Source: a virus (taxonomy: Duplodnaviria; Heunggongvirae; Uroviricota; Caudoviricetes). Taken from it: a DNA stretch of 23,343 nucleotides. The stretch's first letter is position 1. The number at the start of each line of letters is the position of its first letter. Under the pieces are notes generated by a model. That model saw only the letters and a list, made by a program, of their open reading frames with translations. It did not search any database and was not told the DNA's origin. Of this stretch, positions 1 through 23,343 are shown in pieces. The position numbers were made by a program, and so were the translations under genes. The stretch is taken from positions 1-23,343 of the IMG/VR virus record IMGVR_UViG_2541047945_000008; one strand, written 5' to 3'.

Positions 1-1131
1 TCAAATGACCAGTTTTTTCCACTCCTTACCGCGTACATCGTTGTAAATATCGGTCATTTTTTGATTCGAATGGCCTAGCAAAATTTTGGTATCAACCCCC
101 TGCTCTCTGAACAATCGCTCTGATAAAGATCTCTGCTCATGGAAAGAGGGTGGGGTGCCATTAGCACGCCAGTTGTAATCCACAGAATCCCGGGCTTTTT
201 TAAATGCAACGGTTAATGTTGCTGGCTTAACCATCCCGCCGCGCTTAGCTGTCCCTTTCGCGTGATGGTGGTGCAATAGCCACGGACTAAGAACGCAATC
301 GCGGCAGGATGACACTACATCATCCAGGGTGAGATTTAATTTATCGCAACGCAGAGCCAGAGGGATGGCAATCCGGGTTCCTGTTTTTTGCTGTTCGACA
401 TGAAGATAACCATCCCGGATATCCGAAAATTGCATTTTGCAAATATCTGAAAGGCGCTGGCCTGTCATCAGTGCCAGCAGCATACCGCGCTGTAAAAAGT
501 AACCATTCTTTTCCGCTGCGTTATAAATCATCATCCACTCATCAAAAGTCAGTCGCTGTCTTGATATCCGCACCTGCGGTTTTTTTGCCGATTCTGCAGG
601 GTTAAAGCCTGGCGGGACATCGCCCGTTTGCTGAGCTTCCCGGAAAACATCGATCAGTACTTTCCTGAAAATTTGTCCCATTCTGTTATGTCCTCTGGCC
701 TTGTACTCTTCCAGTACTGATACCACATCTTTTACGGTTATGGCATCTAACGGTCTGGTGCCAAAACGTTCATCAAATACCCTGAGAGGGGCCGCTTTCT
801 GTTTCAGCGTGTTGAGTTTGATCTCGCCGTTTTCATATCTTTCCTGTTGAATTTTTCTGTAATTATTCAGAAAAATGGTAACGGTTGATGAACCGCCGGT
901 ATCACTAATAATTTTCTCCTGCAGACTGAGCATTTGTTCCATTTGCTGCCGGGCAAGACGGCTGTTCGCTTCTGCTGCAATAGTTTCTGCCAGTTTCTGG
1001 TCAATACTGCCGAGACCGTGATTTTTGCCTGTTATGGGATGCCTGTAACGCCAGTAAACTTTGTTATTTCTTTTGTCAAAATACGGAGATAATCCCGGAA
1101 CATCGGTTTTATATTTTCGCGGGCGCGCCAT
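1..1131 (-). CDS. int: Phage-type tyrosine integrase (376 aa)
   Basis: Full ORF with stop at the window edge. C-terminal region has the tyrosine-recombinase pattern (LLGHS ... TDIYND). Sits at the prophage end next to an excisionase-like gene. Confidence 0.85.
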   Translation of the reverse strand: MARPRKYKTDVPGLSPYFDKRNNKVYWRYRHPITGKNHGLGSIDQKLAETIAAEANSRLARQQMEQMLSLQEKIISDTGGSSTVTIFLNNYRKIQQERYENGEIKLNTLKQKAAPLRVFDERFGTRPLDAITVKDVVSVLEEYKARGHNRMGQIFRKVLIDVFREAQQTGDVPPGFNPAESAKKPQVRISRQRLTFDEWMMIYNAAEKNGYFLQRGMLLALMTGQRLSDICKMQFSDIRDGYLHVEQQKTGTRIAIPLALRCDKLNLTLDDVVSSCRDCVLSPWLLHHHHAKGTAKRGGMVKPATLTVAFKKARDSVDYNWRANGTPPSFHEQRSLSERLFREQGVDTKILLGHSNQKMTDIYNDVRGKEWKKLVI

Positions 1132-1357
1132 CTTCCAGTATCCTCTTCAAAGCAGGGTGATCTGTGGCGATCACCTCCGGCTTGTTTACCATTCCGACAA
1201 AGCGAGCTTGCGGATCCACTCGCCAGCGTCTTCCAACTTTTTTGGGGAGAGGAAATATCATTCCGGCTTTAGCGTATTTACTTAACGTACTCGGAGTAGG
1301 GACCGGTTCACTGAATTCCTCTTTTGCCCACTCAGTGAGCAGAATAAGTCTTGCCAT
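1109..1357 (-). CDS. Excisionase-like small DNA-binding protein (82 aa)
   Basis: Small basic ORF immediately upstream of int, overlapping its start by 23 nt; this position and size are typical of xis. Confidence 0.55.
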   Translation of the reverse strand: MARLILLTEWAKEEFSEPVPTPSTLSKYAKAGMIFPLPKKVGRRWRVDPQARFVGMVNKPEVIATDHPALKRILEDGAPAKI

Positions 1358-1421
1358 GAGCGTCGTTCGCTAATCATGGTCGCCGCCACTATAGCTGGTG
1401 GGCAACGACCGGGGTTGAACA

Positions 1422-3893
1422 TTAAAAATCAGCCTGATTTGGGATCAGTTTTTGCCAGATAGCTGAAACGTATTTTGCCTGGTAACGGGCGTCATCAAGT
1501 GCATTATGGCGCTCACCTTCGAATGGAATAGCCGTTCTGGCATCGAAGTCTATGGCTTTCCCCAGCTCAACGATTGTGCGTACATCGCGATCGTTGTAGT
1601 AACGCCACGGGCAGGGGATCCCCTGCCGTTCGTATGAACGGCGCAAAATCGTGTTGTCGAAGTTGGCTCCATTTCCCCAAACCTGAACAAAAAATTCACC
1701 GGAGTTTTCGTCGATAAATTCCCGCAATTGTAACAGTGCATCATCTAACGGGATTTCATCGGTCATAATGGCAGATTGCGCTTCGCGTGATTGCTTAAGC
1801 CACCATTTAATGGTGTCCCGATCAATGACTCCGCCAGCAGTTTCCAGATCGATAGTCTTACTAAATTCCGGTCCCATATCTCCGGTTTGCGGATCGAAAA
1901 ATATTGCACCTATTGAGATGATCGGGGCATCAGGATTTTTTCCCATGGTTTCAAGGTCGATCATTAGATGGTCACACGTCCTGCTGGTGGATGTGATTTC
2001 TTGATGACCGTTCACCTTAATTGAGTGATCTGCCGTCTCGCCAGTTTCATTATCGCTATCGTGATGCTGATTGCCGCCAGTGTTCTCCTTGTGTGGATGT
2101 TCAGCGCCTTCCATTTCCTCCGGATCATCTTCCTGAACTTCAGGCTGATACTCTTCATCGAATGTTTCCTGGTATGTTGCGTCGCCCATTACCGCGCCAC
2201 AATCAGGGCAGTTGCCGCCGCCGGTCTGACCGCAGGCGGTGCAGACTTTTTCCACTTCCTGTTGCGCCACTGATTCAGGCTGTTTCGTTTCTGGCTCGTT
2301 TTGTAACGCATTTGGGCTGTTTTGTTCCGCTTTCTGGTCGTTCTGTTCCGTTTCTTGCTGGTTCTGGTTCACAGAATCGCGGGTCTGGTTCCCCTTAACC
2401 CATTTCGGATCATTCGGGTCGCTAATCCCTTCAACAAATTCACCACGTGATACTGCAAGCAGTTCATCGGCGTCAGGCTGGCTGATATTGGCTGCCTGCA
2501 TAATTTTGTTTACTTCGTCAGCGGTAACTTTTACTGACCCTGGTTGTGCGGTCGTGTCAGATGCACCAGTATTTTGTTGTGAACCTGAGTATGTACCGTT
2601 TTTGCGGGCGAAATATTCTTCTTTCGTGATTTCAGTAGCCCCAGCAGACAGCGCCTTATCCAGACCAGAAAGTTTGTTTGCGCGACCGTATTTTTCGCCA
2701 TCCTTGTCGGTGAAGAGGAAGTAGAACGGCCCCTCACGTTCTACAGATGGTTCGACTTCCACTTTGCATTCGGTTTTTTCGTTGTCCGGAATTGCCGTTT
2801 CCACTGCATCAGTTTCTGGTACTGGCGACGAGAGAGTATCAGTTGCGCTCTGATTTGTTCCTTCATCTTCAAACACGCCCTTTGTAGTCAGGTATTCAGT
2901 AATGTATTTGTTCAGTGCCACAGGGTCTTTGTGAATGTCGATCGGACGTTCACGGACAAGGCCAAAAATAGTCTGGCGGTCGTAGCGAAGGGCATCAGGC
3001 TGTTTGCGCATTGATGCCGAGATACGCTTCCAGTCTTCGCGGTCGTTGTCGATAACTTCATTTTTTGCCCAGCGATGGATGCTGCCGTCAATGTTTCCGG
3101 CATCCACATCACCAGGCCAGAGAGCGTAGGCCAGTTCGTCATCCAGTGTTTTCCATGTCTGCTTGTATTCGCGATGAATGGCAGCAATGACCGGGTTGAT
3201 TTTTCCTGTTGAATTTTCAGTGTGCTGTTGATTGGCTCTGGCGCGGGCGAGATCAACAACAGACGTGTATTTTCCGGCTTCCTTGCGTTCACCTTCGCGA
3301 CGTTTTTTCCAGATGCGCATCTCTGCCTGAATTTCGGGCCATTTGGCACCAGGCTTACATTTATGCTTAACCCACCCGATGGCATGCAGCTTAAGCTCCG
3401 GATACATGGCGTTAACTTCTGGCATTTTCATCAACGCTTCAACGATATGTCCGTCGAATGTTGCCATGTCTTCCTGCAACAGTTCCTGCGCGCTAATCAC
3501 CATATCAACGGTGATGTTTTCACATGTGTCGAACTTAACCATGACAGCGTTCTGTACTTCAGGGGCCAGCTTGTCAAAAGTGACGTTCATCGGATCTGAT
3601 TCAGTCTCAACCGGGACAAAGGAAGCAGACGCCTCATCCCAGCGGTTTTCCTGCATATATTCAGCATCCCAGGAATCTAGGGCAGGGCGGGGTATACCGG
3701 GTTTATCCTCGCAGACAAGAAATTTATAAGCGCAGTCCTGAGCAGCCGGATAATGTTCCAGGAATTGCCAGTGAAATTTTGCGCGGGCGCGACGTTCATC
3801 ACCGGCTTCAATGGCAGTGGCTACAGCGACTGCACCTTCTTCCTTTATTGCCTGTTCGTCCGGAATGGCGGCGCAAATAAAGACTTTACTCAT
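1422..3893 (-). CDS. Prophage exonuclease (exodeoxyribonuclease VIII-like), C-terminal DnaQ-type DEDDh 3'-5' exonuclease domain
   Basis: 823-aa ORF. C-terminus carries DEDDh motifs (MIDLETMG; GNGANFDNTIL; HNALDDARYQ). Central Cys cluster CTACGQTGGGNCPDCG and an acidic low-complexity linker. SD GAGGT 8 nt before the ATG at 3893. Confidence 0.75.
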   Translation of the reverse strand: MSKVFICAAIPDEQAIKEEGAVAVATAIEAGDERRARAKFHWQFLEHYPAAQDCAYKFLVCEDKPGIPRPALDSWDAEYMQENRWDEASASFVPVETESDPMNVTFDKLAPEVQNAVMVKFDTCENITVDMVISAQELLQEDMATFDGHIVEALMKMPEVNAMYPELKLHAIGWVKHKCKPGAKWPEIQAEMRIWKKRREGERKEAGKYTSVVDLARARANQQHTENSTGKINPVIAAIHREYKQTWKTLDDELAYALWPGDVDAGNIDGSIHRWAKNEVIDNDREDWKRISASMRKQPDALRYDRQTIFGLVRERPIDIHKDPVALNKYITEYLTTKGVFEDEGTNQSATDTLSSPVPETDAVETAIPDNEKTECKVEVEPSVEREGPFYFLFTDKDGEKYGRANKLSGLDKALSAGATEITKEEYFARKNGTYSGSQQNTGASDTTAQPGSVKVTADEVNKIMQAANISQPDADELLAVSRGEFVEGISDPNDPKWVKGNQTRDSVNQNQQETEQNDQKAEQNSPNALQNEPETKQPESVAQQEVEKVCTACGQTGGGNCPDCGAVMGDATYQETFDEEYQPEVQEDDPEEMEGAEHPHKENTGGNQHHDSDNETGETADHSIKVNGHQEITSTSRTCDHLMIDLETMGKNPDAPIISIGAIFFDPQTGDMGPEFSKTIDLETAGGVIDRDTIKWWLKQSREAQSAIMTDEIPLDDALLQLREFIDENSGEFFVQVWGNGANFDNTILRRSYERQGIPCPWRYYNDRDVRTIVELGKAIDFDARTAIPFEGERHNALDDARYQAKYVSAIWQKLIPNQADF

Positions 3894-4177: not shown

Positions 4178-4362
4178 TGTGCACATCCTTTTTGTATCGG
4201 ACGTAAACGGGCCAGCATTGAAAGAATGCATATTTTATTTAATAACTCCCGTTCGTGTTTTCTCTTGTTAATGGCATCTTCAGTAAATACAGGGTTACTG
4301 ATAGTGACACCAATTTCAAAACAACCTTCAGACGTATTAACGTTTGGTAATAACGTTTCCAT
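4174..4362 (-). CDS. dicB: Cell-division inhibitor DicB (62 aa)
   Basis: METLLPNVNTSEGCFEIGVTISNPVFTEDAINKRK... closely matches my recollection of E. coli DicB (62 aa). SD GAGGA 7 nt upstream. Lies just downstream of DicF. Confidence 0.8.
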   Translation of the reverse strand: METLLPNVNTSEGCFEIGVTISNPVFTEDAINKRKHERELLNKICILSMLARLRPIQKGCAQ

Positions 4363-4540: not shown

Positions 4541-4598
4541 AAAAAGGGCGGCAGAGCAGTCACGGAGTAAAACTGATACCGCCAAATGTCACCAGAAA
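4541..4598 (-). ncRNA. dicF: DicF small regulatory RNA
   Basis: The reverse complement reads tttctggtgacatttggcggtatcagttttactccgtgactgctctgccgcccttttt, matching my recollection of DicF (the ftsZ-targeting sRNA processed from the dicB operon transcript), ending in a T-run. Confidence 0.7.
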
Positions 4599-10600: not shown

Positions 10601-11287
10601 ATGACCCCAATAAAAATATTTATGACTATTGCTGATTTCAAACGGCCTAAATTGGAGCTCCCAAACGGGGCAAACAAACTACTACTGCACTCTTGCTGTG
10701 CTCCATGTTCCGGTGAAGTGATGGAGGCGCTTCAGGCCTCGGGAATCGACTACACCATCTTTTTCTACAACCCGAACATTCATCCTCAGAAAGAGTATTT
10801 AATTCGTAAGGATGAAAATATTCGCTTTGCTGAACAACACGGCGTGCCGTTTATCGATGCTGATTACGACACCGACAACTGGTTTGAACGTGCCAAAGGA
10901 ATGGAATGGGAGCCTGAGAGGGGGATCCGTTGTACCATGTGTTTTGACATGCGTTTTGAGCGGACAGCGTTGTACGCTGCTGAAAATGGTTTCAGTGTGA
11001 TCAGCAGTTCACTGGGCATTTCACGCTGGAAAAATATGCAGCAGGTTAACGAGTGTGGGCGGCGAGCTGTTGCGCATTATCCGGGTATGGTGTACTGGGA
11101 TTATAACTGGCGCAAGCAGGGCGGCTCGTCCCGTATGATTGAAATCAGCAAGCGCGAAAAATTCTATCAGCAGGAATATTGTGGCTGTGTGTATTCTCTG
11201 CGCGATACCAATCTACACCGCAAATCTCAGGGACGCCCTCTTATCAAAATTGGCCAACTCCACTACGGAAAAGAAGAGAAGGAGTGA
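10601..11287 (+). CDS. queH: DUF208/QueH-like protein (putative B12-independent epoxyqueuosine reductase), 228 aa
   Basis: N-terminal [11 protein letters not shown] motif with additional conserved Cys (CTMC, CGC), recalled as the DUF208/QueH signature. No obvious SD; alternative ATG at 10622. Confidence 0.6.
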
Positions 11288-11524
11288 TTTTATGGATCAC
11301 CTTTCTGATTGATTTCATATTGGCGAGGTGACGTGAGTTAAGTAGAATGGCTGCGGGTGCTTGAGGCTATCTGTCTCAGGCATGAACACTGAAAGGCAGA
11401 TAGAGAAAAGCCCCAGTTAACATTTCGCGTCCTGCAAGACGCTTAACATTAATCTGAGGCCCAATCTATGTCTCACAAATGTAGGTTAGCCTCTTACGTG
11501 CCGAAAGGCAAGGGGAAGCAGGCT

Positions 11525-11680
11525 ATGAAGCAGCAAAAGGCGATGTTAATCGCCCTGATCGTCATCTGTTTAACCGTCATTGTGACGGCACTGGTAACGA
11601 GGAAAGACCTCTGCGAGGTACGAATCCGAACCGGCCAGACGGAGGTCGCTGTCTTCACAGCTTACGAACCTGAGGAGTAA
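11525..11680 (+). CDS. hokD: Hok/Gef-family membrane toxin (51 aa), HokD/RelF-like
   Basis: MKQQKAMLIALIVICLTVIVTALVTRKDLCEVRIRTGQTEVAVFTAYEPEE matches my recollection of HokD/RelF. A structured leader lies upstream and a terminator downstream. Confidence 0.8.
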   Translation: MKQQKAMLIALIVICLTVIVTALVTRKDLCEVRIRTGQTEVAVFTAYEPEE

Positions 11681-16396: not shown

Positions 16397-16423
16397 AACC
16401 CGCTCAAATGTGCGGGTTTTTTG
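16397..16423 (+). terminator. Rho-independent terminator downstream of Q
   Basis: cccgc-tcaaatgt-gcggg followed by TTTTTT. Confidence 0.55.
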
Positions 16424-16495
16424 CTTAACTCTGTGGACCTTTTTATCTGTAGTTGTAATATATGGATATTGTTACAATTTAGGTCGGTGAGCTTA

Positions 16496-17260
16496 ATGGA
16501 AGAACAGCACGGTAATTACTTTATAAAACGAATTCAGTTGATTGGAAGAGGGGCATTTGGCTTTGTTGAACACGTTAAGGTTTACAACCTCAATAAAGGT
16601 GAATGCGGGGATTATGCTAGAAAGGTTTTAGCACCCGAAAAACCAGAGCTTTTGGCGCAAATAGAGCAGTTTAGAAGGCGTTTTAAAAGGGAGGTTGTGT
16701 ATCAATCACATTGCGTACATAGCAATATTGTTCCTATTTATTTGTGCGATTTGTTTGTTGAGAATCCATGGTTCATTATGGATAAAGCAGAATGTGATCT
16801 TGAGCACGAAATAACGAACAACCTTCTTACAACAGATCAAAAAATTTCAATAGTGAAAATGGTATTAGATGGTGTAGCTTACATCCATGCCAAAGGCTAT
16901 TTACACAGAGATATAAAACCCTTTAATGTTTTGCGATTTAGCGACGGAACATACAAGGTGTCTGATTTTGGTCTGGTAAAAGATACGAATCCCGAAGGGG
17001 ATACCACTAAATTGACCGAGATCGGTACCCGTATGGGAAGTACAAGATATATGGCTCCCGAGATTTTATATAATGCAGAGTATTCAGTTAAGACTGATGT
17101 TTATGCTGTGGGACGGTTAATTGAAGACTTAAATTTAGATGATAAAAAAATAAAGCCTATCATAGCTAAGTGCACAAGGATGGATAAAGATGATAGATAT
17201 CAGACAATAGATGATGTGGCGTTTGATTTTGCGCATTCTTTTTTAAGGAGTGAGTCATGA
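16496..17260 (+). CDS. Hanks-type (eukaryotic-like) Ser/Thr protein kinase, kinase domain only (254 aa)
   Basis: Canonical subdomains: GRGAFGFV (Gly loop), YARKVL (catalytic Lys), HRDIKPFN, DFG, MAPE, DVYAVGR. ATG at 16496 (track ORF starts at TTG 16421). AT-rich. Confidence 0.85.
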   Translation: MEEQHGNYFIKRIQLIGRGAFGFVEHVKVYNLNKGECGDYARKVLAPEKPELLAQIEQFRRRFKREVVYQSHCVHSNIVPIYLCDLFVENPWFIMDKAECDLEHEITNNLLTTDQKISIVKMVLDGVAYIHAKGYLHRDIKPFNVLRFSDGTYKVSDFGLVKDTNPEGDTTKLTEIGTRMGSTRYMAPEILYNAEYSVKTDVYAVGRLIEDLNLDDKKIKPIIAKCTRMDKDDRYQTIDDVAFDFAHSFLRSES

Positions 17261-18000
17261 TTCAGCTGATAGCGACTTCATCATTCTCGTATCCAAAAGA
17301 ACCAGGTAGGGTCAACGAAGATTCATTGCTTCCTCCAAAAATTGTAGGAGACGGCATCTTATTTGCCGTAGCTGATGGTGTAGGTTCATACTCTGGTGCC
17401 AGTTATGCTTCATCCATGGCAATCGCTGAACTTTCAGCATTGACAAGTTTATCTTTTGATGCAGTTCCGAATGTATTTGCTGAAGTTAAGCGAAAAGTTA
17501 TGTCGTTAGCTGAAGTTAATGATGAGTTCGATAAAGCTGCTACTACACTTACCTTTTGTTATGTTTGTGATAGCGGAATTATTATTGGTCATATTGGTGA
17601 TTGTCGCTTGTATTGCATTGGAGAAAAGAAAGCATATCAATTGACGAAGGACGATACCAGACATCAGATGTTAATTGATCAGAATATTTTTAAACCCAGA
17701 GATTTGAAGAATAAACCGGGAAAAAATATCTTAACGACTGCCATAGCCTCAAATGTTGATATGGAATACGACTGTGATTTTATCCCGTGGAAAGATTTGC
17801 CTGGTATTAACGGGTTGTATCATCTGTGTATCATGTCTGATGGAGTTCATAACGTTTGGGAAAAACGCCCCAGATTTACATCAAATACTATGAGTAATAG
17901 TCAGAAGTTTTCTAATGGTATTTTGCGTCGTATAGAGAGAGCCGGACCTGATGATGACTTTTCTTTAGTAAGTATAATGGTGCGTGTGACGTCAGATTAG
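17257..18000 (+). CDS. PP2C-family (PPM) Ser/Thr protein phosphatase (247 aa)
   Basis: PPM motifs: NEDS, FAVADGVGS, GDCRLY, MSDGV, GPDDD. Start overlaps the kinase stop (ATGA), so the pair is translationally coupled. Confidence 0.85.
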   Translation: MIQLIATSSFSYPKEPGRVNEDSLLPPKIVGDGILFAVADGVGSYSGASYASSMAIAELSALTSLSFDAVPNVFAEVKRKVMSLAEVNDEFDKAATTLTFCYVCDSGIIIGHIGDCRLYCIGEKKAYQLTKDDTRHQMLIDQNIFKPRDLKNKPGKNILTTAIASNVDMEYDCDFIPWKDLPGINGLYHLCIMSDGVHNVWEKRPRFTSNTMSNSQKFSNGILRRIERAGPDDDFSLVSIMVRVTSD

Positions 18001-18110: not shown

Positions 18111-18437
18111 GTGCAGTACGTTAAACACGCTTGTGGTTGTGAATGCCGACTGCGGCGGTATTTTGGCGTGACAGCGCAGGTGCCGTATACCGATGTCTGG
18201 ACGCATAAACCGGTGCAGTTCTATCCCGGGAAACATCCGTGCGAAAAACCGGCAGAAATGCTGCAGCAGATAATCAGCGCAAGCAGTCGTCCGGGAGACC
18301 TGGTTGCAGATTTTTTTATGGGCTCAGGTTCAACGGTAAAAGCGGCACTGGCGCTCGGGCGTCGTGCGATTGGCGTTGAACTGGAGACCGGACGTTTTGA
18401 GCAGACAGTCAGGGAAGTTCAGGATTTAATCGTTTGA
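18111..18437 (+). pseudogene. C-terminal fragment of an N6-adenine/N4-cytosine DNA methyltransferase; N-terminal catalytic part absent
   Basis: HPCEKP ... PGDLVADFFMGSGSTVKAALALGRRAIGVE matches the HPTQKP plus FxGSGS(T) AdoMet-binding end of this methylase class. No DPPY-type region upstream; only about 110 bp separate it from the phosphatase gene. Confidence 0.55.
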
Positions 18438-18486: not shown

Positions 18487-18562
18487 GGCCCTTTAGCTCA
18501 GTGGTGAGAGCGAGCGACTCATAATCGCCAGGTCGCTGGTTCAAATCCAGCAAGGGCCACCA
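18487..18562 (+). tRNA. tRNA with CAU anticodon (Ile2-lysidine or Met type)
   Basis: Hand-folded cloverleaf: acceptor GGCCCTT/AAGGGCC, D-arm AGCTCAGTGGTGAGAGC, anticodon loop CTCATAA, T-arm GGTTCAAATCC, 3' CCA. Confidence 0.8.
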
Positions 18563-18569
18563 TCACATA

Positions 18570-18646
18570 CCGCCATTAGCTCATCAGGAAAGAGCGCCAG
18601 CCTTCGAAGCTGGTTGCGCGGAGTTCGGGTCCCCGAAGGCGGTCCA
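18570..18646 (+). tRNA. tRNA-Arg-like (anticodon UCG), slightly degenerate
   Basis: D-arm GCTC...GAGC, anticodon stem CCAGC/GCTGG with loop CTTCGAA, T-loop TTCGGGT, 3' CCA. One mismatch each in the acceptor and T stems. Confidence 0.55.
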
Positions 18647-18659
18647 TTATCTGTATCCT

Positions 18660-18736
18660 GCGTTGTTAGCTCAGCCGGACAGAGCAATTGCCTTCTAAGC
18701 AATCGGTCACTGGTTCGAATCCAGTACAACGCGCCA
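18660..18736 (+). tRNA. tRNA-Arg (anticodon UCU)
   Basis: Perfect acceptor stem GCGTTGT/ACAACGC, D-arm TAGCTCAGCCGGACAGAGC, anticodon loop CTTCTAA, T-arm GGTTCGAATCC, discriminator G, CCA. Confidence 0.85.
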
Positions 18737-18782: not shown

Positions 18783-18996
18783 TCACAATTCAGGCGGTTG
18801 ACTGTTGTCTGGTTTGCGGGGAGTTTGTTAAAAGAAACTGGCATGGTGAATCCCCCTGTGCGGAGGGGCAATCAGCGAGTAGGTATATGGGATAATCGCG
18901 GATTCAGGTGCTGGTACTGAATTCACCGGGAGGCACCCGGCACCATGCAATGGCACATAGCGCCACTCTCCAGCCCCTCTCCGGAGGGGCTTTTCT
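18783..18996 (+). repeat. Repeat unit A: structured element ending in a terminator (candidate sRNA gene)
   Basis: Shares blocks with unit B: tcacaattcag, ttgac, tttgttaaaa, catggtgaatcccc, a cccc/gggg hairpin, caccgggaggcacccggcaccatg and terminator gcccctc-tccg-gaggggc plus T-run. Confidence 0.5.
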
Positions 18997-19250
18997 GTGC
19001 CGGATACATCACAGTTTCTGGAACCTTAGGTACTACAGTATCAGTCAGGGTGCTATATTTTCAGATGTGATGAAAGCCTGTCAGCAGGCAGGGCGTATCG
19101 GAAATGACCCAGTAGAGAAAACGTTGACTCAGATACCGGTGCTGAGTTACCGGGAAACCGGCATCACATGACCGCTATCCTTCCAGGCCCATCCGCTCCG
19201 GTGGGCCTTTTTACTGCAGAAAACAGGTTCCCCGTTAAATGCTATGTTGC

Positions 19251-19483
19251 TCACAATTCAGTAAGTTGACAGTTGCCTGTCAGACTGGGCATTTGTTAAA
19301 AAAATTTCGCATGGTGAATCCCCCTGAGCGGAGGGGCGACTGGTGACGGTATAATCTCTGATTATCAAAACGAGAATGACGCGGGTTTAGTGGCACCGGG
19401 CTGAACTCACCGGGAGGCACCCGGCACCATGTGCATGATGATACAGATACGCGGCTTTAGCCCCTCTCCGGAGGGGCTTTCTT
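19251..19483 (+). repeat. Repeat unit B: second copy of the structured element
   Basis: Same conserved blocks and the same terminator hairpin (agcccctctccggaggggctttctt) as unit A; internal segments diverge. Confidence 0.5.
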
Positions 19484-19711
19484 ATGGACAAAAAAAGCCC
19501 GCGCTGGGAGACGCGGGCGGCAAGGAATAAACAATAAAACGTGAAGTAATATTTCAGCTGGCGAATAATACCCCATAGTAATCACTCTGCGCAACTGCGC
19601 GGTCTTTTTCGAATTGCGGGCTGTAGTCTCCCTTCTGCCATTGTCCTGTAACTTCCGGACTTCAGCCTGCTCCTTATCTGACTCACAACATTATCCCGCC
19701 CGGGAGGATTC

Positions 19712-19855
19712 ATGGCATTTAAACACTATGACGTGGTCAGGGCGGCATCGCCGTCAGACCTTGCGAAACGACTGACACAAAAACTGAAGGAGGGCTGGCA
19801 GCCGTTTGGTAGTCCGGTGGCCATAACCCCTTATACCCTGATGCAGGCGATTTGA
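19712..19855 (+). CDS. Small phage protein (47 aa as read) whose 3' end and stop codon are supplied by the IS629 terminus
   Basis: ATG at 19712 with SD GGAGG 5 nt upstream; the ORF ends at the TGA formed by the first bases of the IS inverted repeat (TGAACCGCC...). Confidence 0.5.
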   Translation: MAFKHYDVVRAASPSDLAKRLTQKLKEGWQPFGSPVAITPYTLMQAI

Positions 19856-19906
19856 ACCGCCCCGGGAATCCTGGAGACTAAACTTCCTGAGAAAGAGGTA
19901 AACAGG

Positions 19907-20233
19907 ATGACTAAAAATACTCGTTTTTCCCCTGAAGTCCGTCAACGGGCAGTCCGTATGGTTCTGGAAAGTCAGGGCGAATATGACTCACAATGGGCGA
20001 CAATTTGTTCCATTGCTCCAAAGATTGGCTGTACGCCGGAGACTCTGCGTGTCTGGGTTCGCCAGCATGAGCGGGATACCGGGGGCGGTGATGGAGGGCT
20101 CACCACCGCTGAACGTCAGCGTCTGAAAGAGCTGGAGCGTGAAAATCGTGAACTGCGCCGCAGTAACGATATCCTTCGCCAGGCTTCCGCTTATTTTGCG
20201 AAGGCGGAGTTCGACCGCCTCTGGAAAAAATGA
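19907..20233 (+). CDS. IS629 transposase OrfA (HTH, 108 aa)
   Basis: [57 protein letters not shown]... with a leucine-zipper-like C-terminus. Confidence 0.85.
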
Positions 20234-21120
20234 TGCCACTGCTGGATAAGCTGCGTGAGCAGTACGGGGTCGGACCGCTATGCAGCGAACTGCATATTGC
20301 CCCGTCAACGTATTACCACTGTCAGCAACAGCGACATCATCCGGATAAACGCAGTGCCCGTGCGCAGCGCGATGACTGGCTGAAGAAAGAGATACAGCGC
20401 GTATACGATGAAAATCACAAGGTATACGGTGTGCGTAAAGTCTGGCGTCAGTTGTTACGGGAAGGTATCAGAGTGGCCAGATGCACTGTGGCACGTCTCA
20501 TGGCGGTTATGGGACTTGCCGGTGTTCTCCGGGGTAAAAAGGTCCGTACGACCATCAGCCGGAAAGCCGTTGCCGCAGGCGACCGCGTAAACCGTCAGTT
20601 CGTGGCAGAACGACCTGACCAGCTGTGGGTGGCTGATTTTACTTACGTCAGCACATGGCAGGGCTTCGTCTATGTGGCGTTCATCATTGATGTGTTTGCC
20701 GGATACATTGTGGGGTGGCGGGTCTCATCGTCCATGGAGACGACATTCGTGCTGGATGCACTGGAGCAGGCGTTATGGGCCCGTCGACCGTCCGGCACGG
20801 TCCATCACAGTGATAAAGGTTCTCAGTATGTATCGCTGGCCTACACACAGCGGCTTAAGGAAGCCGGATTACTGGCATCAACAGGAAGTACAGGCGACTC
20901 GTATGACAACGCGATGGCGGAGAGCATCAATGGTCTTTACAAAGCGGAGGTAATACACCGTAAGAGCTGGAAAAACCGTGCAGAAGTGGAACTGGCCACA
21001 CTCACGTGGGTGGACTGGTATAACAATCGACGATTGCTGGAAAGGCTGGGCCATACTCCTCCGGCAGAAGCAGAAAAAGCTTATTATGCTTCCATCGGAA
21101 ACGATGATCTGGCAGCCTGA
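20230..21120 (+). CDS. IS629 transposase OrfB (DDE integrase-like catalytic domain)
   Basis: 296-aa ORF overlapping OrfA (ATGA); rve-type DDE domain (WVADFTYV ... HHSDKGSQY ... DNAMAES). Confidence 0.85.
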
Positions 21121-21164
21121 GTTCACAGATAAAATACTCTCCAGGAAACCCGGGGCGGTTCACA

Positions 21165-21425
21165 CAGTATCAAGTAAGCCCGGAGACTTCTTCCTATAGA
21201 TCGTATTATCAACGTATTCAGACACAGTCAGCAGGTGCTCATACCCACTCGCTGTCTGGTACTGCAGCAAGTTCTGGCGCACATGCACATACTGTAGGTA
21301 TTGGTGCGCATACGCACTCCGTTGCGATTGGTTCACATGGACACACCATCACCGTTAACGCTGCGGGTAACGCGGAAAACACCGTCAAAAACATCGCATT
21401 TAACTATATTGTGAGGCTTGCATAA
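21165..21425 (+). pseudogene. 3' fragment of a side tail-fibre gene (C-terminal approx 86 codons, no start)
   Basis: Open frame from the IS629 end to TAA at 21423-21425: ...[66 protein letters not shown], with His-containing GxHxH repeats typical of tail-fibre C-termini. Followed directly by tfa. Confidence 0.7.
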
Positions 21426-22009
21426 TGGCATTCAGAATGAGTGAACAAGCACGGACCATAAAAATTTATAATCTGCTGGCCGGAACTAATGAATTTATTG
21501 GTGAAGGTGACGCATATATTCCGCCTCATACAGGTCTGCCAGCAAACAGTACCGATATTGCACCACCAGATATTCCTGCTGGCTTTGTGGCTGTTTTCAA
21601 CAGTGATGAGGCATCGTGGCATCTCGTTGAAGACCATCGGGGGAAAACGGTTTATGACGTAGCGTCAGGGGACGAGTTATTTATTTCTGAACTCGGTCCG
21701 TTACCGGAAAATGTTACCTGGTTATCGCCGGAAGGGGAGTTTCAGAAGTGGAACGGCACAGCCTGGGTGAAGGATACGGAAGCAGAAAAACTGTTCCGGA
21801 TCCGGGAGGCGGAAGAAACAAAAAACAAACTGATGCAGGTAGCCAGTGAGCATATTGCGCCGCTTCAGGATGCTGCAGATCTGGAAATTGCAACGGAGGA
21901 AGAAACCTCATTGCTGGAAGCCTGGAAAAAGTATCGGGTGTTGCTGAACCGTGTTGATACATCAACTGCACCTGATATTGAGTGGCCTACGAACCCTGTC
22001 AGGGAGTAA
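21425..22009 (+). CDS. tfa: Tail fibre assembly protein (Tfa), 194 aa
   Basis: Start overlaps the tail-fibre stop (TAATG). Conserved Tfa C-terminus ([32 protein letters not shown]). Confidence 0.8.
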
Positions 22010-22063
22010 TCATTGGGATTATGCCGCAGCACGTCTTAAGCAAGAACGTGCTGCGGTTGGATG

Positions 22064-22720
22064 CTATTTTTTCCCTGAAGCGGAAAACATTACTACAGTA
22101 CCTTGAACCTTGGTTTTAACATTCTCGAAATGCTCTGAGAGTATATGTGTTAAGCCTTCTTCGGAATCTTTTGTGTTTGAAAAGATGCCTTTCTGATTGT
22201 AAATGCGCATCAGTTTTTGACCGAAGCTATTGTGCACAACTCCATCGCCAAGAATTGTGGCTCCGTATAGAGTTCCATCGTCAGTTAAGGCCTGCGCCGC
22301 ATTGCGTATTACACAGCTTTTTGTAGATATATTTCCAGGCAGGCAGTGAAGAAGGTAAAACATGGAAATGGAATCAAATTGACCATGTAACGCCGCGGGA
22401 TAAGGTTCAAAAACATCATGGCTAATTTTATGTTTAATTTTTGATTCCCCAGCCCTTGTAGATGCCGCGTTCAGGCTAGCTTCGTTCAAATCCATTAAAG
22501 ATATCAGACTACTCTCAGGTACGTGAGTAAGGTAAAACCCAGTTCCAACACCAATATCCAGATGGTTGTTACCTACATGTTCCAGAAAGTGTGGAAGAAG
22601 GTGTTCCTTTGTAGGACATCCCCATGCAAGCCGATTTGATACTCCCAAAACCCACCAGTCATAAAGCTTTAGGGTAAGTGGTGTGTAAATTTTAGCCCCA
22701 TCATCTGTGTTTTTTTTCAT
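22064..22720 (-). CDS. Class I SAM-dependent methyltransferase (approx 218 aa), low-GC cargo gene
   Basis: Motif I LDIGVGTGFY. Convergent with tfa. SD GGTGA 5 nt before the ATG at 22720; the track ORF extends to 22732. Confidence 0.7.
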   Translation of the reverse strand: MKKNTDDGAKIYTPLTLKLYDWWVLGVSNRLAWGCPTKEHLLPHFLEHVGNNHLDIGVGTGFYLTHVPESSLISLMDLNEASLNAASTRAGESKIKHKISHDVFEPYPAALHGQFDSISMFYLLHCLPGNISTKSCVIRNAAQALTDDGTLYGATILGDGVVHNSFGQKLMRIYNQKGIFSNTKDSEEGLTHILSEHFENVKTKVQGTVVMFSASGKK

Positions 22721-22788
22721 TGATTTCACCATGTTATAGTTTTATTTGTGAATTAAATCAATTATGGCGATGAATTACAAGGGGTTAA

Positions 22789-23058
22789 ATGCTGCCGCAG
22801 CATAGCGATATTGAAATAGCCTGGTATGCTTCGATACAGCAGGAGCCGAATGGCTGGAAGACCGTCACCACACAGTTCTACATCCAGGAATTCAGTGAGT
22901 ATATTGCGCCACTGCAGGATGCTGTAGATCTGGAAATCGCAACGGAGGAAGAAAGATCGTTGCTGGAGGCATGGAATAAATATCGGGTATTGTTGAATCG
23001 TGTTGATACATCAACTGCACCTGATATTGAGTGGCCTGCAAATCCTGTCAGGGAGTAA
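22789..23058 (+). CDS. Chimeric small ORF whose C-terminal approx 50 aa duplicate the Tfa C-terminus (possible tfa remnant)
   Basis: C-terminus [50 protein letters not shown] is near-identical to the end of Tfa (21425..22009); the N-terminal part is unrelated. Confidence 0.4.
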
Positions 23059-23172
23059 TCATTGGGATTATGCCGCAGATACGTCGTATGCAGGAACGTG
23101 CTGCGGTTAGTTTGTGAGCTTTCGATAGTGGTTGTTATTTTTGCCCTTATTTGTTCCGGAGGCCATGGTTCA

Positions 23173-23343
23173 ATGGTCCGTCTGCCCCCTGTGGTGATGT
23201 CAGCAAAATCAGCCACTGCGCGAACCACAATAGCCCGGGAAGATGCTGAAGATCACCAGGTAAAGCTGTCAGCGCAGAAACTGGAAGAACTGCTCGCATC
23301 AATGGTTAAGGATGAGGTTGATCGCAATGATGGGATTTATTGA
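23173..23343 (+). CDS. Hypothetical small protein (56 aa) ending at the window edge
   Basis: In-frame ATG at 23173 with GGAGG 10 nt upstream; the track ORF extends to an upstream ATG lacking an SD. No family recognised. Confidence 0.3.
   Translation: MVRLPPVVMSAKSATARTTIAREDAEDHQVKLSAQKLEELLASMVKDEVDRNDGIY

Follow-up and report, generated by a model that had tools for sequence, protein, structure and literature searches.

A tfa-ybcY-tfaX module at the right end of a degraded lambda-like ompW prophage and its probable exchange by homologous recombination at tfa 3' ends

Lambdoid phages carry morons, such as lom and bor of phage lambda and those of HK97/HK022, and cargo loci are located downstream of the tail-fibre genes in O157 prophages (Juhala/Hendrix 2000; Tobe 2006). 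We analysed a virus record of the class Caudoviricetes (IMG/VR record IMGVR_UViG_2541047945_000008, positions 1-23,343; this whole stretch of 23,343 nt is hereafter called the window), in which a gene for a class I S-adenosylmethionine (SAM)-dependent methyltransferase lies between two direct repeats of the 3' end of tfa, the tail fibre assembly chaperone gene. By gene content and sequence similarity, this region is identifiable as the known tfa-ybcY-tfaX module, represented by tfaD-ybcY-tfaX in the DLP12 prophage (argU/ompT locus) of Escherichia coli K-12, and as a case of ordinary phage mosaicism rather than a new element. The names ybcY and tfaX and the divergent spacer between these genes appear in a genomic SELEX (systematic evolution of ligands by exponential enrichment) study of K-12, in which the spacer was recorded as a site of the RpoD holoenzyme, with an H-NS flag as well, and the ybcY promoter TTGATT-17-TATAAC was predicted (PMC3946193). 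The annotation of phage PhiR26_1 (PV340555) also uses the name YbcY. Apart from this promoter and H-NS entry, the literature found on ybcY/tfaX comprised only a null result in an Hha toxicity screen and descriptions of the ompT context, and a literature search by protein accession returned no match. In Tfa chaperones, the N-terminal domain, which binds the fibre, is variable and the C-terminal domain, which drives oligomerisation, is conserved (PMC9608196, summarising North et al. 2019).

The window locus resembles the K-12 DLP12 locus in gene order and orientation, the hairpin, the divergent spacer and the promoter hexamers, and shares 96.9% nucleotide identity with the DLP12 locus of strain DH1 over 1465 nt (window 21571-23035). 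In K-12, the insert has a tfa fragment on one side and appY-ompT on the other, its methyltransferase gene is frameshifted and tfaX contains an internal stop, whereas the window has an intact methyltransferase gene, a native tfa end in place of the 3' end of tfaX and, to the right, a DUF4376 gene fragment and the attR site in ompW. At ≥95% identity, the insert (22059-22881) was found in 3844 of 5426 complete E. coli genomes (71%), including K-12 derivatives, and the whole 21160-23343 stretch was found in 1062 genomes. Fourteen phage records, including ev243, 2G7b, Kati, Turner and the PhiR series, contain an intact methyltransferase gene, and the order in ybcY phages is J-lom-stf-tfa-ybcY(-)-tfa'-hydrolase-ompT-int. 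Being annotated in K-12 and in thousands of genomes, the unit adds little as a discovery; ybcY represents a conserved, uncharacterised enzyme family in most E. coli, and the broken K-12 copy may be the reason why the gene has never been studied. The original prediction, made from the letters of the window, had described the methyltransferase as cargo captured at a tail-fibre/tfa recombination hotspot. Its character as cargo is borne out by its lower GC content, opposite strand, variable neighbours and presence or absence in near-identical prophages, but the capture is neither fresh nor unusual, given a module present in 71% of E. coli.

We consider it highly probable that a degraded lambda-like ompW prophage carrying the tfa-ybcY-tfaX module has its right end in this region, and that homologous recombination at tfa 3' ends accounts for the movement and loss of ybcY, a moron. 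According to this explanation, ybcY would be a self-contained accessory gene on the opposite strand, just downstream of the tail-fibre operon, with its own promoter and a 3' hairpin that would also end tfa. The present arrangement would have been generated by a single unequal homologous crossover between a DLP12-like tfaX relic and an ompW-type tfa 3' end. A DLP12-like phage would have been the donor of everything leftward, including tfa-hairpin-ybcY-tfaX', and an ompW-type phage that of its own tfa 3' end and everything rightward. Judging from natural variants, the tfa 3' ends, several of which are present per genome, would serve as portable homology through which the unit can be gained, lost and patch-converted, presumably by RecA or phage Red and with no dedicated recombinase. 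ybcY resembles the lambdoid morons in being an extra gene between phage modules, in its opposite strand, own predicted promoter and end hairpin, in its presence or absence among close relatives at a module boundary, and in a base composition unlike that of its neighbours. It differs from them in that its hairpin lacks the U-tract of a canonical terminator; its expression from the repressed prophage and any benefit to the host are putative.

The variants that bear on this explanation were found by comparing occupied and empty loci. The query for the empty form consisted of the allele-specific 5' part of tfa and the unique downstream sequence, counted as one place only if the two parts lay close together. 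The occupied form was present in 1062 genomes versus 19 with the empty form, all sharing the same tfa allele and downstream sequence; in each of the 19, the locus measured exactly 870 bp and contained exactly one repeat unit, one mosaic tfa and no methyltransferase. The mosaic was tabulated at 70 variable sites in 5 occupied and 10 empty loci. All empty alleles tabulated are copy-1-like in the 5' part and copy-2-like in the 3' part, and the switch point lies within 21948-21989 in most of them and within 21994-22029 in strain EFF60. The empty locus of NMBU-W13E19, which has an additional two-site copy-2 patch, and the occupied locus of WP7-S17 have in common a rare single-nucleotide polymorphism (SNP) at 21871, the stf protein and the downstream Rha/ash genes. 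In the occupied locus of O104:H4 strain 2011C-3493, copy 1 carries copy-2 alleles at three sites (window 21989-21994) and keeps the copy-1 hairpin, an apparent gene conversion between the two tfa ends. Taken together, these patterns are those of products of homologous recombination between diverged repeats and indicate at least two independent events or junction classes. The original prediction had suggested that the repeats could mediate excision or exchange of the insert and had proposed a comparison with related prophages for its presence or absence; the variants agree with that suggestion. With 1062 occupied loci, 19 empty loci and several junction classes, the locus offers a clean case, open to counting, of cargo being shuffled between prophages through recombination at conserved tfa 3' ends.

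The tfa gene itself is intact (21425-22009, plus strand; 194 amino acids) and matches Caudo_TAP (PF02413; E 1e-44) and phrog_105 (E 9e-101). Copy 1 of the direct repeat (21833-22058, plus strand) spans the last 58 codons of tfa, which encode the conserved C-terminal domain of the chaperone, together with the stop codon and the hairpin that follows the gene, and overlaps a match to the Rfam family IS009. The whole repeat measures 226 bp (21833-22058 and 22882-23108) at 89% identity. The repeat finder reported 197 nt (21833-22029 versus 22882-23078; 89%), after which the similarity resumes past a 1-nt indel for a further 28 nt (22031-22058 versus 23081-23108; 89%), ending 5 bp from the stop codon of the methyltransferase gene. 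A repeat of about 90% identity had been predicted from position 21846, and its start is now placed 13 bp further upstream. Between the coding parts of the repeat copies, 12.5 synonymous and 9.5 non-synonymous changes were counted (synonymous divergence, dS, 0.41; non-synonymous divergence, dN, 0.074; dN/dS 0.18). On these values, the copies are best read as two old tfa alleles that diverged under purifying selection, not as a duplication made by the arrival of the methyltransferase. Several distinct Tfa PHROG families match just the C-terminal 60-85 residues, and parts of the tfa query were found at a median of three places per genome, so that the tfa segment constitutes dispersed homology.

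Copy 2 (22882-23108, plus strand) is a hybrid. From 22882 to about 23013 it shares 99% identity with the tfaX relic of DLP12-type loci, and from about 23013 onwards it matches the tfa 3' end and hairpin allele of insert-free ompW-type prophages, i.e. a native tfa 3' end with a weakened hairpin. It forms the C-terminal part of an 89-amino acid open reading frame (ORF) of the tfaX type (22789-23058, plus strand), in which 31 unrelated N-terminal residues precede the Tfa C-terminal domain; such a chimeric ORF had been predicted. This ORF matches phrog_2341 over its full length (E 4e-61) and only positions 75-130 of the 131 positions of Caudo_TAP (E 6e-25), so that the C-terminal domain is present and the N-terminal fibre-binding domain of full-length Tfa (about 175-200 amino acids) is missing. 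The annotation by PGAP is a partial tfa pseudogene lacking the N-terminus (22882-23058). When the tfaX position was translated in nine loci, K-12 and phage Kati showed an internal stop and IAI39 a frameshift, the O157 copy was cut short by IS66, and in ev243, PhiR26_1 and EC6622 the final 15 residues were missing and the frame read on into unrelated sequence; in Nissle, tfaX is wholly absent. Because its orthologues show stops, frameshifts, truncations or absence, tfaX appears to be a decaying, non-functional leftover of an earlier tail-fibre module.

The limits of the module were determined by pairwise BLAST of the window against eight loci. In unrelated contexts, the homology extends from the hairpin (22018/22024) to within the second repeat (23013-23035). 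The left neighbour is the tfa 3' end directly in the window, K-12, IAI39, Nissle and PhiR26_1, whereas katN-yciEFG-like genes occupy this position in O157:H7 and pin-ydfK-ynaM in EC6622 and phage Kati. The right neighbour varies among hydrolase-ompT, appY-ompT, IS66 and, in the window, the DUF4376 fragment. As the homology ends and the neighbours vary across loci, the conserved unit can be delimited as the hairpin, the methyltransferase, the spacer and the 5' part of tfaX. The breakpoints cluster near the tfa stop codon and within the C-terminal coding segment of tfa. In O157:H7 strain 9234 (positions 795-3008 of locus L006), genes for a katN-like manganese catalase and yciE/yciF/yciG-like proteins lie between tfa and the ybcY hairpin, and by their position they represent a paralogous stress-gene set captured at the same post-tfa breakpoint.

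The hairpin (22024-22056) is located between the convergent tfa and methyltransferase genes and has perfect 11-bp arms (22024-22034 and 22046-22056), exactly as had been noted for the end of copy 1. Its pattern CCGCAG-N21-CTGCGG occurs once in the window versus 0 expected from shuffled sequences. As RNA, the copy-1 hairpin forms a stem of about 14 pairs with z-scores of -3.5 on the plus strand and -4.4 on the minus strand, whereas the copy-2 hairpin (23073-23106) is weakened (-1.4 and -2.1). The copy-1 hairpin accompanies the methyltransferase into other contexts, as the homology to the O157 and EC6622 loci starts at 22018/22024, and it probably serves tfa and the methyltransferase gene alike as a transcript end or terminator. 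PGAP also calls a 45-amino acid 'hypothetical protein' ('nucleocapsid protein' in K-12 records) at 21982-22119, over the tfa stop, the hairpin and the 3' end of the methyltransferase gene; this ORF showed no family match and looks spurious.

At the other end of the methyltransferase gene, the divergent spacer (22733-22788, minus strand) contains two sigma-70 promoter-like sites, TTGATT-17-TATAAC at 22761-22733 and TTAACC-16-CATAAT at 22788-22761. The former occurs only once in the window, directly 5' of the methyltransferase gene, and the hexamers of the spacer are those published for the K-12 ybcY/tfaX spacer. In the explanation preferred here, the methyltransferase gene would have its own predicted sigma-70 promoter in this spacer.

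The methyltransferase gene is listed as 22064-22732 (minus strand; 222 amino acids), contains HLDIGVGTGFYL and is convergent with tfa. GC content is 0.40-0.43 across the insert (methyltransferase, 42%) versus about 0.50 in tfa. The convergent, low-GC class I methyltransferase predicted between the repeat copies was thus recovered by profile searches: it matches Methyltransf_12 at 37.5 bits (cut-off 30), matches to generic class I methyltransferase Pfam families are above threshold, and phrog_2132, a family with no assigned function, is matched over its full length (E 4e-157; residues 5-222 on profile positions 1-218 of 218). Classification with hidden Markov models, which had been proposed as a check, therefore yielded generic class I Pfam families and phrog_2132 and no DNA-methyltransferase family. 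Motif I (LDIGVGTG) occupies residues 58-65, and D59, G61, G63, G65 and D81 (in LMDLN) are invariant across 31 homologues. The protein has the features of the class I (Rossmann-fold) superfamily, namely the GxGxG loop, the acidic residue at the end of strand 2 for binding the ribose of SAM, a profile match above threshold and a seven-stranded alpha/beta fold. M5 is also invariant, and nearly all homologues begin with it; as the start conserved across the family, it is probably the true start (22720; 218 amino acids), and the start at 22732 that is listed and given by PGAP would lie 12 nt upstream of the real one. The -10 hexamer, as published, directly adjoins 22732, which implies a very short leader.

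The methyltransferase belongs to a 100%-identity cluster of 6589 sequences, and homologues of 218-224 amino acids with many invariant residues form 2296 clusters in Enterobacterales, Aeromonas, Shewanella and Pasteurellaceae. Its copies are 98.8-99.8% identical across every E. coli context, which makes dN/dS within E. coli uninformative; dN/dS is 0.21 against Citrobacter and 0.11 against Salmonella. The homologues in Salmonella, Enterobacter, Aeromonas and Citrobacter are stand-alone chromosomal genes or lie in other prophage-cargo regions beside sodC, dinI, sopA or perC, and no conserved operon partner was found in the genomic contexts of these four genera. In IAI39, PGAP annotates an N-terminal DinI-family fragment (4249-4329 of locus L005, corresponding to window 22807-22887, minus strand) on the methyltransferase strand just upstream of the gene; clear DinI similarity was not seen in the translation of the corresponding window stretch. 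In the Citrobacter locus L023, a full dinI adjoins the methyltransferase homologue. The fragment and the Citrobacter dinI may point to an older dinI-methyltransferase linkage.

The AlphaFold (AF2) model of the methyltransferase has a pLDDT of 89, and its fold neighbours are JHAMT (7ec0), bacterial PmtA (8ys9), PEAMT (3uj7), SgvM (8rpr), NovO (5mgz), DhpI (3ou2) and Coq5 (4obw). From these, the most likely substrate of the enzyme in the lysogen is a small molecule or lipid, not DNA. Among NCBIfam models, only sub-threshold matches were obtained (CpaM, RquA and PmtA, 16-18 bits versus cut-offs of 175-390), and a sequence search of the Protein Data Bank returned only JHAMT and UbiG (E about 1e-3) and no characterised close homologue. 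The invariant motifs of the ybcY family, YDWWVL..SN..AW.C.T, YLLHCLPG and HN.F..KLM..YN.KGIFSN, are not features of the fold-neighbour enzymes as far as tested.

Several observations weigh against parts of the moron explanation. The SNP mosaics do not polarise gain versus loss, and the more divergent empty alleles, with flanks 96-98% identical, may be ancestral rather than deletions. The promoter-like sites are not enriched in the region (3 found versus 3.3 expected from shuffled sequences), and the SELEX support is in vitro and from K-12, with an H-NS flag that suggests silencing. The hairpin does not score as a canonical intrinsic terminator, a U-tract abutting the stem being absent on both strands. 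The fold matches are generic (TM 0.55-0.67, 11-21% identity) and identify no substrate, so that none can be transferred from the known small-molecule or lipid class I methyltransferases. Lastly, K-12 tolerates a frameshifted ybcY.

Some features of the locus would also be seen if the repeats were a duplication made by the insertion itself, with the methyltransferase as a recent cassette that has a duplicated target or as a product of staggered-break repair: the insert is bracketed almost exactly, the repeat ending 5 bp from the methyltransferase stop, and the empty sites hold exactly one repeat unit. This origin is nevertheless highly improbable, since the copies are only 89% identical, with a dS of 0.41, against 98.8-99.8% identity of the methyltransferase across E. 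coli. Moreover, copy 2 shares 99% identity with DLP12-type tfaX in its 5' part and has the native tfa end of the empty alleles as its 3' part, and the DLP12-type right-hand copy is truncated at both ends, which is not expected of a target duplication. The presence of a Pin-type invertase between tfa and the methyltransferase in phage Kati and the EC6622 prophage recalls the invertible tail-fibre segments of the Mu G, P1 C and e14 P type, in which case the two tfa copies would be alternative chaperone genes. For the window, this is extremely improbable: the copies are in direct orientation, neither the window nor the intact relative contains an invertase, there is no alternative fibre C-terminus, and copy 2 lacks the N-terminal fibre-binding domain. 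The original prediction had named such a segment, with the methyltransferase as a conserved resident gene, as the outcome that would overturn it; the methyltransferase is indeed a conserved resident gene of the module, but the segment is not invertible, the repeats being direct and no invertase lying at the locus.

The repeat could instead have been kept by selection if tfaX, alone or with an IS009 RNA, were functional as a C-domain-only chaperone, a fibre-assembly inhibitor or a prophage small RNA. The 89-amino acid ORF is intact here, is preceded at 4-5 nt by a Shine-Dalgarno-like AAGGGG and gives a full-length match to phrog_2341. IS009 (Rfam RF02111; gathering score 117) matches both copies, copy 1 at 21768-21966 with 223.9 bits over the full model length and copy 2 at 22812-23015 with 112.5 bits, slightly under the gathering score. 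We regard such a function as quite unlikely in view of the damaged or missing tfaX orthologues and the PGAP call of a pseudogene, and the low dN/dS between the copies (0.18) is what would be expected of two alleles that diverged while each worked as tfa. The IS009 match lies in the sense strand within the 3' coding sequence of tfa, and a RIBO-seq study dropped IS009 as one of the Rfam families expected to bear ribosome footprints, e.g. through a same-strand location within a gene (PMC5331693). What the family captures may be a conserved stretch of coding sequence and not an RNA gene, and an independent RNA function is doubtful. If the locus were a tail-fibre-distal defence hotspot, the methyltransferase might act on DNA or RNA or serve in anti-phage defence or counter-defence, which is very unlikely. 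PADLOC gave nothing significant for the methyltransferase (best match mad2, E 0.009, 12.9 bits, with no stretch passing the threshold). The 222-amino acid sequence contains no (D/N/S)PP(Y/F/W), PCQ or ENV motif, and a target-recognition domain is absent from the 218 residues. No DNA-methyltransferase Pfam family was matched, the top fold neighbours are small-molecule and lipid methyltransferases with no DNA methyltransferase among them, and the Salmonella and Enterobacter homologues are stand-alone chromosomal genes with no conserved partner. An effect of ybcY on the methylome is unlikely for the same reasons, i.e. the small-molecule fold neighbours and the lack of DNA-methyltransferase motifs. 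It is also rather unlikely, though conceivable in view of a bacterial phosphatidylethanolamine N-methyltransferase among the fold neighbours, that the enzyme is a true lysogenic-conversion methyltransferase of a host metabolite or membrane lipid that gives lysogens a selectable trait, with the flanking Tfa C-domain segments acting as portable homology arms of a recombinase-free cassette between lambdoid prophages. Such a role, if true, would explain the near-invariant ybcY sequence in about 70% of E. coli.

The remainder of the window places the module in its prophage. The chromosome of E. coli LC-1302-2020 contains the segment 21160-23343 at 100% identity, and the window represents almost the entire degraded lambda-like prophage, starting from int beside an intact ompW. 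The window stops just before an ompW fragment that adjoins yciE-trp. In the intact prophage of strain 118UI, the order is J, lom, stf, tfa, methyltransferase (minus strand), partial tfa, partial DUF4376 gene and attR. In the window, the DUF4376/tail-fibre-related gene fragment (23155-23343, plus strand), a pseudogene according to PGAP with phrog_7703 and phrog_1141 'tail fiber protein' matches, extends beyond the window end towards attR in ompW. To the left of tfa, a 3' remnant of the side tail fibre gene stf (21163-21425, plus strand; a partial coding sequence in PGAP) is contiguous with the complete 3027-bp stf of the intact relative (locus L002).

The stf gene is truncated by an IS3 element of the insE/insF type (19853-21162, plus strand; 'IS3 family transposase' in PGAP), which contains an ALIL frameshift pseudoknot (Rfam match at 20188-20304) and has 41-nt terminal inverted repeats (19853-19893 and 21122-21162). 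The triplets flanking the element are unlike (ATT versus CAC), indicating no target duplication, and the element occupies the place of the lysis, head and tail (morphogenesis) genes of the prophage. Because the flanking triplets differ and these genes are gone, IS3 appears to have mediated a deletion or rearrangement rather than to have undergone simple insertion. A DUF1737 gene fragment is fused by IS3 straight onto the final 260 bp of stf. In 118UI, the IS3 copy is located elsewhere, between the tail genes L and K.

Elsewhere in the prophage, just 3' of the Q antiterminator gene, an overlapping pair of genes for a Ser/Thr protein kinase (279 amino acids) and a PP2C phosphatase (247 amino acids) was found at 16421-18000 with a GC content of 0.34-0.41. 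With strong matches to the PADLOC models mad6 (E 2e-40), PD-T4-6 (E 2e-34) and Stk2 (E 2e-27), the kinase likely serves the prophage in defence or exclusion, paired with a phosphatase of its own. At 18111-18437, a site-specific DNA methyltransferase is represented by a C-terminal fragment, followed by three tRNA genes (18487-18736) with the anticodon CAT (Ile by PGAP, Met by ARAGORN), Arg-TCG and Arg-TCT, a cluster that is usual downstream of Q in lambdoid phages. Above the Rfam gathering scores, two copies of the small RNA STnc100 (18812-19002 and 19280-19489), the DicF gene (4546-4597, minus strand) beside dicB, and the sok antitoxin (11355-11530) with hokD were identified. The early region (about 10622-11287) also contains a homologue of the epoxyqueuosine reductase QueH (PGAP), a tRNA-modification gene unusual for a lambdoid prophage.

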